From assembly GCF_017348835.2 (NCBI RefSeq), contig NZ_CP072312.1: 64,000 nt of DNA, one strand, 5' to 3'. Position numbers: made by a program. How positions within the stretch are numbered: the first letter of the stretch is position 1; each line of letters begins with the position of its first letter. This stretch comes from Escherichia coli. Lineage in GTDB: Bacteria > Pseudomonadota > Gammaproteobacteria > Enterobacterales > Enterobacteriaceae. Shown piece after piece: positions 52,001-55,000 of the stretch.

Positions 52001-55000
52001 CTTCATTTCACTGCCTGCCAGCGCCATCACTTTTTCAAGCATCACTGCCGGGACTGTCACCTGACGGCTGGCACGCTTTTCTTCCATCAGTTCACGGACA
52101 ACGTCGTGAACAATGCTGACATCCGCACCATGCTCAAAAGCATCGTCCAGCCGTTGCATGACGGTTTCCAGCTCATCGTCTGTCAGACTCCAGTCCCGGG
52201 CTATGTGACGCACATCCCCACGGGTCAGCACCACGGCAAAAACGCATTCACTGTCCGGCACGTCTGTATCCAGCACTTCGCGGATAATTTCTTTAACAGT
52301 ACAGTACATGTTCTCGTCTCCTTTACAGGGGCGGCATTGCCGCCCCGTCCGTTAATCAGTCCAGTGCCGCGTAAATCGCGTTACATTCGGGATGAACTTC
52401 GATGTGGCTCCACGACTGCGCATCACGCATCCGGTACAGGTGTGTCAGTCCCGCATCACCGCTGTCGTGGTACAGCCACAACTGGCGGTTAATCACAAGG
52501 GAAGTCAGAATGATGCCTGCGGCATCGGCGCTGACCGTGCGGTCAAACCAGTTTGCACCGTTAACCAGATGAAAACGGTCACCGTCCGGCAGGCGGATGA
52601 AGTGCCAGAAGCCGCCTTCATATTCCGGCATCATTTGTTTCGCCAGCACGTACACAGACGCTTCGGCATACAGAAAACCCAGGCCAAACAGGTAAGGCAG
52701 AAAGGAGAGACGGTCGCACTCTTCAACATTCAGAGTGACAGGTTTCGCATATTGCATGATGTTTTCCTCCGTTGTTCACATATTCCGCGACACCGGGCGG
52801 TGCCGTGCCTCCATAAAAGCCGGGCGATAAGGCGGGGATGCAGGGGCGCAAGGGAAGCCGCAGCCTGACGCACACGGCTGGCGGGAGTTGGAGGGTGAGA
52901 CCGCGAAACCTGAGCGGGTGAACGACCGGAAAATCACGGCAGACGGGAAGGAGGGACCGGGTGACCGCAGCGGCGAAGCGTACCCTTGCATCCCCGCCAG
53001 CCCGGCTAAGATGGAGGCACGGCACAGCCCGCACACAACACGGCGGCCACATAACTGAAAACCCACAAGGCCATGCCCCGCATGGCCGGGTAAAGCGGAG
53101 CCGGTGGCGACTTCCTTTGAGCTCTGTCCGGGGACCGGCAGGAAAAAGGCGGGGATTTACCCCGCCAACGTCATCATTTCCGGATTTTTGCCAGGGCATC
53201 CGCCATGCTGCGGATTTCGGCCCGGGCTTCCCGGACAACTTCCCGCAGAACACCACGGTCAAACCACTGGCGGGGCGGTTCATCCGGTATACGCAGCACA
53301 TCGCAGGCCAGCCCACTGGACAGGATATGTTCAAGACAATCGCTGACCAGATACATTTCCACCGCCGAAAAACGTGCGCCCCGGTTCAGGATGGCATCGA
53401 GCACCACGGGCAGGTTTTCGTCGTCCTCATCGAGCCAGCAGGGGTGATCGCTTTCCTTCACGACTAGGCGAAAGCGGCGCGTCTGGCGGGTCAGTAACGT
53501 CTGACCGGTGGTGGTCAGCGCCGCCCGGATACGCAGCGTATCTTCTGCCACCCGGCAACTGACACTGCGTACAGCATCACGCACCGCCGCAAGTACAGCC
53601 CTGATTTCGTCTTCGGTCAGCCATTCACCGGCATACGGAAAAGACACCTGCGTTCCGTCTGCCGGAAGTACCGGCAGCGACTGCCACTGACTGCCGGACA
53701 GTACAAGTTCCGCCCCGGTTCCGGTCAGTTTGTGAATAGCGGAGGCCAGGAGCGGCGGCAGTACGCCGCCGTGACGGTTGATAAGTAACGTCGCCAGCCG
53801 GGGCGCATCCAGCAGAACATAAATGCTGATCCAGCCCGGATACTTCGGGTTCCGCTGGTCAACATCAGTCTCTTCCGGCCAGCCCTGCGCCAGCAGCAGG
53901 TCGCGGGCGTGACGACAAATCAGTGCATTCAGCGTTGTGTTTTCGTTCATGATTAATCGTTCTCCCTGTATCGCCGCCCGGAGGCGGCGATAACATCAGT
54001 CGTTTTCGTGCGTGTTGTTTTTCAGCAGGATGCGGGCCTGATTAACCACCGCCTGACGGCGGGTGACGAATTCCGGGACGGCGAGGCCGTTATCACGGGC
54101 GGCCCATTCACGCTTCCACAATGCCTGTTCAGCGGTCTGAATCAGGGACGCCAGCAGTTCAGCAGGGACGGTCACCTGGCGGTTTTCACTCACGTTGCTG
54201 ATAATCTCCATAGCCGCACCGGAAGAAATACCGGACTCAGTCCGCTGGTCTTCCGGGATGTCCTCCAGCCGCGCCAGGACGGTCCTGATTTCATGATCGG
54301 ACAGGGAAATATCCATTCCATCAGCGAGGACCTGAATCTCTTCCGGGGACCAGACAACCAGCATCAGCGGAGTGTCTCCCGGATACTGCGCTGCCAACTC
54401 CCGGCAGAGCGTTTCGCATGTTCCGTACATACTCTCTCCCCTCAATCTTTGAAGCAGGAATCCAGTTCCAGAATTTCGGTATATGCCTCCATCAAGAGGC
54501 GGTTTGCGCGAAACAGCGTCTGACGCACCAGACGTTCCGGCAGGGTGTCGGCATTAAAGCTGTACCGCTGCTCCATCTCATTCATGGTTGTACGCAGGTC
54601 GCACATGGCATTGGCCACCTCCGCCACTTCGGCGCGCAGTTTTTCGTGTCCGGCATAGTTCATTTACGCAGCCTCCGGTTCAAACCAGTTATCATTCGCG
54701 GCCCCCTGCTGCATGGCCCGTTGCACGGCGGCCAGTCGTTGCTGTCCGGCACGGTGATACTGTTCAAGCAGCTCGATACCGATATACCGGCGTCCGGACT
54801 GAAGGGCGGCCACGCAGGTTGAGCCGCTGCCTGCAAACGGGTCCAGCACAATTGCGTTCGGATGTGTGAAGCTCTCAATCAGTGGTTGCAGGCTGGTAAC
54901 GGGCTTTTCCGTCGGGTGATGGCGGTTGCCTGAATATTTCCAGCCCAGCACGTCGGGCAATGGCTTCTGAGGCAGCGCCGGACGCCCTTTTGCCAGGATG

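Follow-up and report, generated by a model that had tools for sequence, protein, structure and literature searches.

A long inverted repeat stands directly upstream of a three-gene unit in a 64,000-nucleotide stretch of Escherichia coli plasmid DNA (NZ_CP072312.1; the whole stretch is called the window), and the question it raises is whether it serves as a promoter on the incoming single strand and, if so, of which kind. A sequence-only reading had likened it in size and position to Frpo-type structures. We are highly confident that the element, referred to as hairpin A (52794..53031, + strand), is a class 2 ssDNA promoter and the counterpart of F plasmid ssp2, an assignment that draws on how it folds, which strand it occupies, which of its parts the family conserves and its homology with elements characterised elsewhere. 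It is an element of an already described type.

Structure of the inverted repeat and the transferred strand

A repeat search resolved hairpin A into an outer pair of arms of 32 nt (52794-52825/53000-53031, 88% complementary) and an inner pair of 16 nt (52831-52846/52983-52998, 94% complementary), which sum to a stem of about 48 bp. The arms had been read at 52800-52854/52983-53025 with few mismatches and a loop of about 125 nt; the repeat is present at that place, the arms that we found reach slightly further at the base, and the size of the apical domain agrees (52850..52976, + strand, about 125 nt and purine-rich on the transferred strand). One mismatch, a 3x3 bubble (AAA 52815-52817 versus AAG 53008-53010) and an asymmetric internal loop (GATAA 52826-52830 versus A 52999) interrupt the stem. 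In the lower stem, identified by the repeat search, the fold and the family alignment, the 5' (template) arm (52794..52814, + strand), which contains GCCGTG at 52802-52807, pairs with the 3' (non-template) arm (53011..53031, + strand). The base composition of the whole hairpin is A54 C68 G95 T21.

The transferred strand was determined from oriT. An F-type nic sequence match, GTGGGGTGT/GGTGCTTTT, lies at 47354..47372 on the + strand and places the nick at 47362/47363 of the window; the F oriT sequence, its cut strand, its polarity and the covalent linkage on the 3' side of nic have been described (PMC3074121). With nic on the + strand and the leading region on its 3' side, the strand that is transferred is the + strand, which therefore serves as the template for minus-strand genes. 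Hairpin A is found 5.4 kb into the leading region of this IncF plasmid, on the transferred strand. Folded as ssDNA, the + strand of 52794-53031 reached -77.1 kcal/mol, compared with -48.4 +/- 3.3 kcal/mol for shuffled sequences (n=200, z = -8.6), none of which matched it (0/200). The + and minus strands of a wider stretch of 291 nt gave z values of -6.1 and -5.8, respectively, with a minus-strand fold energy of -72.3 kcal/mol as DNA. The sequence-only reading would have been overturned by a stable structure confined to the non-transferred strand; the fold of hairpin A instead favours the transferred + strand by about 8 kcal/mol. Part of the leading region is missing from the host plasmid, and IS elements have inserted near oriT; because of this the copy of hairpin A studied here could be a passenger of a poorly transferring plasmid.

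The gene unit and the promoter-like elements facing it

Three minus-strand genes follow hairpin A as a single same-strand unit, in agreement with the initial reading. The first (52356..52757) encodes a KlcA/ArdB-type anti-restriction protein homologous to the product of F yfgB (Pfam Antirestrict PF03230, E 9.7e-16) and carries the annotation 'antirestriction protein' in NZ_CP024480, an identical record. The second (51887..52309, DUF1380 family protein) and the third (51699..51890, small hypothetical protein) were assigned from their ORFs and the annotation of NZ_CP024480, and the start of the third overlaps the stop of the second. Pfam was used instead of NCBIfam, for which we found no models of KlcA-like, DUF1380 or YubH-like proteins. 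The ATG at 52757 lies 36 nt from the base of hairpin A; the 43-bp gap given earlier is correct when counted from 52800 and becomes 36 nt from the true base. A Shine-Dalgarno sequence, GGAGG, is present at 52770-52766 on the minus strand. From promoter geometry and sequence, transcription would start at about 52806, 7 nt past the -10, giving a predicted 5' UTR at 52758..52806 (minus strand).

Upstream, the methylase...YubH unit ends at an intrinsic-terminator-like hairpin followed by a T run (53148..53166, minus strand), one of two terminator scan calls (53166-53148 and 53082-53064). This terminator closes the upstream unit, and the klcA unit therefore needs its own promoter. An ordinary duplex sigma-70 promoter for klcA was considered and rejected, since a simple consensus scan of 52600-53250 detected no duplex sigma-70-type promoter on either strand. 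Judged by sequence, the klcA unit here has a predicted ssDNA promoter and lacks an ordinary one.

The elements of the predicted ssDNA promoter are aligned along the 3' arm, where promoter-like sequences in the stem had been suggested as something to look for. A -35-like hexamer, TTGCAT (52986..52991, + strand), is separated by a 15-nt spacer (52992..53006, + strand) from a -10-like hexamer, TAAGAT (53007..53012, + strand), so that the stem rebuilds -35 and -10 boxes facing klcA. The first T of TTGCAT forms a G.T wobble with G52843, and the middle bases of TAAGAT (AAG, 53008-53010) are the unpaired ones opposite AAA 52815-52817. Because of the GATAA bulge, the segment of the 5' arm that faces the spacer (52819-52837) is 19 nt long. 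The hexamers are weak, matching the consensus at 3/6 and 4/6 positions, and a simple consensus scan finds neither; the spacer is also shorter than the usual 16-18 nt of sigma-70 promoters. In duplex form the klcA-directed sequence reads CTGCAT, 19 nt, TTTTAT.

The same repeat would also fold in the minus-strand transcript, as its minus-strand energy indicates, and could then govern processing, stability or termination at the RNA level, either in upstream read-through transcripts or in the klcA leader. We regard this as extremely unlikely: a separate terminator already ends the upstream unit, the mRNA-sense fold is the less stable one in 47/47 relatives (mean difference of 9.1 kcal/mol in favour of the transferred-strand sense), and the asymmetries between the arms make sense for a DNA promoter only. 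With E up to 1, none of the Rfam 15 covariance models matched within 52700-53100. An intrinsic terminator was likewise rejected, as no terminator is called at hairpin A, whose stem of about 48 bp carries a 125-nt loop and is followed by no T run.

Conservation and covariation among relatives

Relatives were gathered by a pattern scan of species-representative genomes that used the 3' arm only, and this was chosen over BLAST of a plasmid collection, which filled with more than 5000 near-identical records. The search pattern fixed CTTG, GCCCGGCTA and CACGGC together with their spacing, so conservation at these positions is partly circular. Three of the 59 pattern matches (Polyangiaceae, Halomonas and Planctomycetota) were discarded as chance hits with no 5' arm and no final hexamer T. 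The family set (alignment A2) comprises 47 distinct hairpins from Enterobacterales, and a second set comprises 23 copies that were found by profile although they depart from the exact pattern.

Across the 47 relatives, 23 of the 48 stem pairs have changed on both sides. We counted 196 compensatory cells against 72 +/- 8 in shuffled alignments, with 0/500 shuffles reaching the observed value, a significance that these controls overstate because the 47 sequences are related by descent. The covariation score was 0.205 and fell to 0.068 or less when partners were slid. Since compensatory changes keep the pairing across 47 distinct relatives, the pairing of hairpin A is beyond chance. An inverted repeat in an IS-rich plasmid might be a functionless chance or selfish palindrome, REP-like or an IS remnant, and nothing more. 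This reading is vanishingly improbable and already refuted by the strong stem covariation, by the fixed position before anti-restriction genes, by the single copy in the 64-kb window and by conservation in more than 5000 plasmid records, at identities of at least 90%.

GCCGTG/CACGGC is invariant in the 47 sequences while the flanking pairs covary; CACGGC was fixed by the search pattern, and the invariance of GCCGTG is no independent result because an exact match, which the scan itself did not demand, was required for entry to A2. TAnnnT occurs in 47/47 of these pattern-selected copies, its final T being free of search constraint, and in the profile-found copies the corresponding counts are 22/23 for the first T, 23/23 for the A and 23/23 for the final T. 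The adenine at position 2 of the -10 (-11 A) is unpaired in 46/47; the -10 of one relative (L015) is paired throughout, which shows that the bubble is not obligatory. TTG is kept in 21/23 profile-found copies, and in this set the neighbouring stem bases vary while TTG and TAnnnT persist. The first T of the -35 is in a G.T pair in 31/47 and an A.T pair in 15/47. The 15-nt spacer is seen in 47/47, where the pattern fixed it, and in 22/23 profile-found copies; its 19-nt counterpart in the 5' arm, unconstrained by the search, is present in 45/47, and the 15/19-nt asymmetry holds in the same proportion (45/47). In 46/47 the duplex-form hexamer is without A2 and T6. Two apical motifs, AAGCCGCA (52855-52862) and GA(A/C)CGGGTGA (52955-52964; here GACCGGGTGA), are invariant across the family in A2. 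Counts of G.T versus A.C stem pairs (69 versus 45, mostly at one position) gave a weak signal on the folding strand and were set aside, whole-fold energies being clearer. Behind the hairpins of the relatives lies an ORF with a Shine-Dalgarno sequence at a constant distance, encoding a DNA methylase in 16 cases, ArdA in 15 and KlcA/ArdB in 11.

These features bear on the proposal that hairpin A does no more than obstruct or time complementary-strand synthesis as a physical barrier, thereby delaying duplex conversion, and that its promoter-like bases are incidental. Its stem is long and GC-rich, and in F stalled complementary strands have their 3' end where the ssp2 stem ends, while deletion of ssp2 speeds conversion of downstream loci and the delay persists with rifampicin (bioRxiv 10.64898/2026.01.09.698686). 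We nevertheless consider a roadblock alone very unlikely. TTG and TAnnnT are kept amid varying paired bases, the conserved unpaired -10 weakens the stem and would be disfavoured in a pure roadblock, the distance to the gene beyond, which always bears a Shine-Dalgarno sequence, is fixed, and both the preprint and Wen et al. link the element to yfgB/klcA transcription (bioRxiv 10.64898/2026.01.09.698686; PMC12672017). The roadblock is better seen as an additional role of the class 2 promoter than as an alternative to it. A G-quadruplex as the cause of the roadblock was rejected: the transferred strand has 11 G-runs of at least 3, with no canonical four-tract motif (loops of up to 7 nt).

Class assignment, known counterparts and significance

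The name 'class 2 ssDNA promoters' was given by Wen et al. (NAR 2025), who mapped start sites by 5' RACE (PMC12672017); these promoters are induced in transconjugants, where 5' RACE for pESBL and RNA-seq for F showed that transcripts begin within the hairpin while the DNA is still single-stranded (PMC12672017). Hairpin A shares sequence and structure with the pESBL klcA and ardA hairpins and their F homologue at 97-98% identity over 238 nt, and like them it belongs to the leading region, occupies the transferred strand and directly precedes an early operon led by an anti-restriction gene. Identity is 98.3% to F (NC_002483 56480-56718, between yffB and yfgB) and 97.9% and 97.1% to pESBL (NC_018659 57097-57334 and 64044-64281). 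TTGCAT, the spacer and TAAGAT are identical in F ssp2, which has the same strand relative to oriT and the same neighbourhood (YubH-like gene, terminator, hairpin, anti-restriction gene, DUF1380 and small ORF). The two differ by three substitutions and one 1-nt indel, including A53026 in hairpin A (C in F ssp2), which creates a mismatch near the stem base. They also differ in setting, hairpin A being on an EHEC-type IncFIB plasmid without the ssb-psiB operon, whereas F has ssb-psiB downstream. pESBL (IncI1) differs in its backbone (MOBP, IncI), and there a class 2 element also drives ardA, which is absent from the window. In F, ssp2 drives yfgB, its deletion lowers transfer into restricting hosts, and it transiently stalls complementary-strand synthesis, a block relieved by UvrD (bioRxiv 10.64898/2026.01.09.698686). 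Deletion of copies that are 97-98% identical to hairpin A leads to a loss of establishment. By analogy with these elements, this particular copy of hairpin A is probably active.

The initial likening to a Frpo-type promoter on the incoming strand survives as to function, which strand, elements and 97-98% identity to transcription-linked hairpins all support, and fails as to sequence kinship. Homology to classical Frpo was rejected: BLAST of known and candidate Frpo/ssi sequences, including those of class 1 (F ssiD/Frpo, ColIb ssi1-3), against 52787-53117 gave no class 1 match, and a class 2 nhmmer profile, searched to an E of 10, recovered none of the class 1 sequences. Class 1 Frpo/ssiD (F) and ssi1-3 (ColIb-P9) are, like hairpin A, transferred-strand stem-loops of the leading region that rebuild -35/-10 boxes and drive early genes, and they are switched off on duplex conversion (Masai & Arai 1997; Bates et al. 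1999; Couturier et al. 2023, PMC9849209). They differ at the apex, where GCAAAA(n)TTTT...AAAA(n)TTTTG, an A/T-rich palindrome that is UP-like according to Samuel et al. (PMC11541004), stands against the GC-/purine-rich apex of hairpin A, in which direct reading finds no palindrome of the AAAAnTTTT type. Candidate Frpo' 4 of Samuel et al. (Nature 2024; PMC11541004, supplementary file 4) is a relative of hairpin A (82% identity over 335 nt), and Frpo* 1 and Frpo* 3 match the class 2 profile, with compensatory changes in the upper stem visible between them. These computational candidates from an insect-gut metagenome island are grouped as 'Frpo-like' (PMC11541004), yet share no detectable sequence with Frpo. 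BLAST places a class 1 (Frpo) copy at 50951-51288 of the window, and a copy of class 3 (ssp3), the class that stands upstream of the M.EcoGIX-type methylase, lies at about 55407-55631. Class 3 has the same role and region as hairpin A and an unrelated sequence.

Frpo was first described as an ssi-type, primer-making signal. SSB-stimulated binding of RNA polymerase and synthesis of primer RNA in vitro serve as a criterion for class 1 Frpo/ssi (Masai & Arai 1997). Hairpin A might be an ssi signal that mainly makes an RNA primer for complementary-strand synthesis, given that DNA synthesis can be primed in vitro by class 1 Frpo and that early conversion events occur in vivo downstream of ssp1a and ssp1b in a transcription-dependent manner. 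This we judge highly improbable, since hairpin A has no similarity to F ssiD or ssiE, early conversion in F is rare just past ssp2 (about 4% at yfgB versus 24%/48% past the ssp1 promoters), and ssp2 delays synthesis instead of starting it (bioRxiv 10.64898/2026.01.09.698686). F ssp3 has no roadblock activity (bioRxiv 10.64898/2026.01.09.698686).

With hairpin A as a class 2 promoter, the following sequence of events can be proposed. During conjugation the + strand would enter the recipient 5'-first from the nick, so that the region would arrive early and single-stranded. The strand would then fold back, its 3' arm providing the non-template promoter strand and its 5' arm a template continuing directly into the gene; as the -10 sits in the mismatch bubble, adenine 53008 would already be unpaired and available to sigma-70. 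RNA polymerase would initiate near GCCGTG/CACGGC, and transcription would leave the base of the stem into the KlcA/ArdB anti-restriction gene and the next two genes. Synthesis of the complementary strand would abolish the hairpin, and expression would stop because the duplex sequence would be unusable as a promoter.

It is possible, though we hold it doubtful, that three features are as yet undescribed. In the first, the unpaired -10, the wobble pair (G.T) that opens the -35 and the 15- versus 19-nt spacer would form a built-in switch, so that the DNA has a usable promoter when the strand is folded and lacks one as duplex. The second is a separate function of the apical motifs, for example as roadblock determinant or protein contact, which is suggested by the retention of AAGCCGCA and GA(A/C)CGGGTGA in every size class. 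The third is a family larger than published: class 2 hairpins also precede orphan methylase genes in Pantoea/Erwinia-type elements and, from their position, may drive them. A divergent short class 2 copy is also present upstream of a DUF1281 gene (F 52656-52827; pESBL 53272-53443), outside the four and six published operons.

For the window the result is mainly one of annotation, the region fitting ssp3, ssp2 and ssp1 of the published scheme, and the biology added is modest family-level detail only. Clinical IncF and IncI plasmids with elements of the ssp2 type number in the thousands, and in F such elements influence transfer to hosts that restrict incoming DNA. Through ssDNA promoters, anti-restriction and establishment genes are expressed within minutes of entry, before the host cuts the plasmid.

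Hairpin A and the transferred strand

The sequence-only reading had proposed a large inverted repeat at 52800-53025 directly upstream of a three-gene minus-strand unit. A repeat search confirmed its coordinates, arm length and loop size, and placed the base of the stem a few bases further out (52794-53031): 52794-52825 pairs with 53000-53031 (32 nt, 88% complementary) and 52831-52846 with 52983-52998 (16 nt, 94%). Folded as single-stranded DNA, the + strand of 52794-53031 reaches -77.1 kcal/mol with a single long stem of about 48 pairs, against -48.4 +/- 3.3 kcal/mol for shuffled controls (z = -8.6; 0/200 equally stable). 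This stem contains a 3x3 bubble (AAA 52815-52817 opposite AAG 53008-53010), an asymmetric internal loop (GATAA 52826-52830 opposite A 52999) and one further mismatch; an apical domain of about 125 nt closes it. The distance from the stem base to the ATG at 52757 is 36 nt, and the ORF search bore out the three-gene unit on the minus strand (52757..52356, 52309..51887 and 51890..51699).

The window comes from an EHEC-type IncF plasmid for which an identical record exists, NZ_CP024480 (IncFIB, MOBF), with etp, stcE and traM. A sequence search located the F-type nick sequence GTGGGGTGT|GGTGCTTTT at 47354-47372 on the + strand. The F relaxase cuts the nick-bearing strand and remains bound to the DNA 3' of the cut, which enters the recipient first (PMC3074121). 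Since traM sits on one side of the nick and the leading region on the other, 3' of it on the + strand, it is the + strand that is transferred and that serves as template for the minus-strand genes. Hairpin A, located about 5.4 kb inside the leading region, folds stably on this transferred strand. The same sense folded more stably than its complement in 47/47 relatives (mean difference 9.1 kcal/mol), and the G.T and A.C counts in their stem pairs (69 vs 45) give a weak strand signal. An action of hairpin A as an RNA-level hairpin is contradicted by the asymmetries between the arms, by the strand bias of the fold and by a separate terminator-like hairpin at 53166-53148 (minus strand; terminator scan), which has a T run and ends the preceding unit just upstream. 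No duplex sigma-70-type promoter was found on either strand of 52600-53250.

Covariation and promoter-like elements

To collect relatives, one genome per species was scanned with a pattern drawn from the 3' arm only (CTTG-N11-GCCCGGCTA-N9-CACGGC), which gave 59 matches at 50 loci, almost all in Enterobacterales. Three matches in unrelated phyla were rejected as chance-like since they had no 5' arm. The alignment comprised 47 distinct hairpins of 184-247 nt, from which RNAalifold recovered the long stem unaided. When the window's stem was imposed on the alignment, 80.8% of cells were paired and 23 of the 48 stem pairs showed changes on both sides. Compensatory cells numbered 196 against 72 +/- 8 in shuffles (0/500 as high), a control that overstates significance because the sequences share ancestry; the covariation score of 0.205, against at most 0.068 with partners slid by 1-3 columns, is free of that problem. 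Because the scan pattern left out the 5' arm, and the later selection of hairpins demanded no more of it than an exact GCCGTG at its base, the pairing in the rest of this arm is an independent result. This covariation excludes a chance repeat.

Once the template strand is folded, its 3' arm takes the place of the non-template strand in a promoter directed toward the gene. The stem carries promoter-like elements of the kind for which the earlier reading had proposed to look: a -35-like TTGCAT (52986-52991, +) is followed after 15 nt by a -10-like TAAGAT (53007-53012, +). The second hexamer is TAnnnT in 47/47 hairpins, its final T being outside the search pattern and absent from the three chance matches. 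The adenine at its position 2 is unpaired in 46/47, one relative having a fully paired -10, and in the short size class the entire hexamer lies inside a 5x5 bubble. The duplex-form hexamer toward the gene (the complement of the 5' arm) has neither A2 nor T6 in 46/47, and the 5'-arm segment opposite the 15-nt spacer measures 19 nt in 45/47; the window's duplex form would be CTGCAT, 19 nt, TTTTAT. Searching the fetched loci with a profile yielded 23 more full copies outside the exact pattern, with TTG in 21/23, TA in 22-23/23, the final T in 23/23 and the 15-nt spacing in 22/23, while the adjoining paired bases were variable. Although invariant, the 15-nt spacer is short for sigma-70; the template-arm bulge may modify the geometry. 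Transcription is predicted to start about 7 nt past the -10, at template base ~52806 within the invariant GCCGTG/CACGGC block; the leader would then measure about 49 nt and carry GGAGG at 52770-52766. The apical motifs AAGCCGCA (52855-52862) and GA(A/C)CGGGTGA (52955-52964) are invariant in 47/47 and in every size class; even the short class, whose loop is missing about 55 nt, retains them. The two motifs do not pair with each other.

Relation to known single-stranded DNA promoters

We compared the window by BLAST with every known and candidate Frpo/ssi sequence of Samuel et al. 2024 (PMC11541004, supplementary file 4). Hairpin A matched only the candidate "Frpo' 4" (82%, 335 nt), plus "Frpo* 1" and "Frpo* 3" in the 3' arm, and showed no BLAST similarity to class 1 Frpo/ssi sequences. 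Likewise, a class 2 profile search found no class 1 sequence and did not match hairpin B or the Frpo of the window itself, and no Rfam family matched hairpin A. The apex also differs, being an A/T-rich palindrome in class 1 and a long GC- and purine-rich domain in class 2. We therefore rejected a Frpo homologue. Of the initial proposal of a Frpo-type promoter, the promoter part is supported by the strand, the promoter elements and the F and pESBL copies, and the kinship with Frpo gives way to class 2 (ssp2); the element would work like Frpo but is not related to it. A role as a priming signal fits class 1 better than ssp2.

Hairpin A is 98.3% identical to the F ssp2 region (NC_002483 56480-56718, between a YubH-like gene and an anti-restriction gene), 97.9% to the pESBL klcA hairpin (NC_018659 57097-57334) and 97.1% to the pESBL ardA hairpin (NC_018659 64044-64281), with no differences at the promoter-like bases. 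Wen et al. (NAR 2025, PMC12672017) reported six operons strongly induced in pESBL transconjugants, each preceded by a predicted large hairpin, and used 5' RACE to map the start sites of all six. Their classification of the hairpins comprises class 1 (ssi1-3, Frpo), class 2 (klcA, ardA) and class 3 (M.EcoGIX methylase), of which the last two are conserved in F. The F copy, named ssp2, controls yfgB (an ArdB homologue); its deletion reduces transfer into restricting hosts, and a stall of complementary-strand synthesis at the stem end does not depend on transcription and lasts until UvrD resolves it (2026 preprint 10.64898/2026.01.09.698686). Such a roadblock is thus documented for F in addition to the promoter role, but a pure roadblock gives no account of the conserved unpaired TAnnnT or of the fixed distance to the gene. 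Given this published work on copies 97-98% identical, hairpin A is, by sequence identity, an already known element, a class 2 (ssp2) single-stranded DNA promoter, and the novel part is limited to family-level details, which are modest additions.

Neighbouring hairpins and downstream genes

Upstream of an orphan DNA methylase gene (54664..55347, minus strand), the transferred strand carries another large hairpin (55407-55631; fold tested 55380-55660, -91.3 kcal/mol, z -6.35). Its identity to F 53853-54133 (97.9%) and pESBL 54470-54749 (96%) identifies it as the published class 3 (ssp3) promoter, and the 'hypothetical protein' ORF lying on it (55424..55729, minus strand) is probably not a gene. 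The class 1 Frpo at 50951-51288 is 92% identical to F ssiD; over the wider 50900-51400, identity reaches 94% with the F Frpo1 region and 87% with Frpo2. No other copy occurs in the window, and the ssb-psiB-psiA-hok segment, which in F lies between Frpo2 and Frpo1, is missing. Recombination between the two repeats would be expected to produce this deletion, as anticipated by Couturier et al. 2023. Near oriT, the F ssiE homologue is split by IS4 (47958-48071 and 49505-49587; transposase 48084..49421, minus strand). A perfect 27-nt palindrome at 49649-49703 (ATGATAATATAAGTAAAGCCCCGAAAA / TTTTCGGGGCTTTACTTATATTATCAT), overlapping the last bases of a DUF932-type ORF (49700..50302, minus strand) at its stop-codon (3') end, is probably a bidirectional terminator.

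Just upstream of the DUF1281 gene, both F (NC_002483 52656-52827; L053:7657-7828) and pESBL (NC_018659 53272-53443; L054:3272-3443; -50.3 kcal/mol, z -2.8) carry a short, divergent class-2-like hairpin (TTGCAT-15-TAACGT; nhmmer E ~1e-14), which does not belong to the six (pESBL) or four (F) ssDNA-promoter operons published so far. In the window, a umuC/impB-like fragment (56073..56666, +) truncates the DUF1281 gene near 56150, which explains why this hairpin is missing there.

Many of the loci L002-L051 (Pantoea, Erwinia, Enterobacter, Lelliottia, Buttiauxella and others) carry 2-4 class-2-type hairpins a few kb apart, preceding ArdA, KlcA-like and orphan methylase genes; the methylase there follows a class-2-type hairpin, whereas in F and pESBL it follows the class 3 type. 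Enterobacterial-type copies on two Streptomyces morookaense and two gut MAG contigs look like assembly contamination.

Behind hairpin A, the first gene (52757..52356) encodes a Pfam Antirestrict domain (E 9.7e-16) and the second (52309..51887) DUF1380. In nearly all relatives with flanking sequence, an ORF with a Shine-Dalgarno sequence begins 26-36 nt from the extracted hairpin. Because these ORFs encode orphan DNA methylases (16), ArdA (15; Pfam E 1.5e-34) and KlcA/ArdB (11), the class 2 family is a promoter module for anti-restriction genes.
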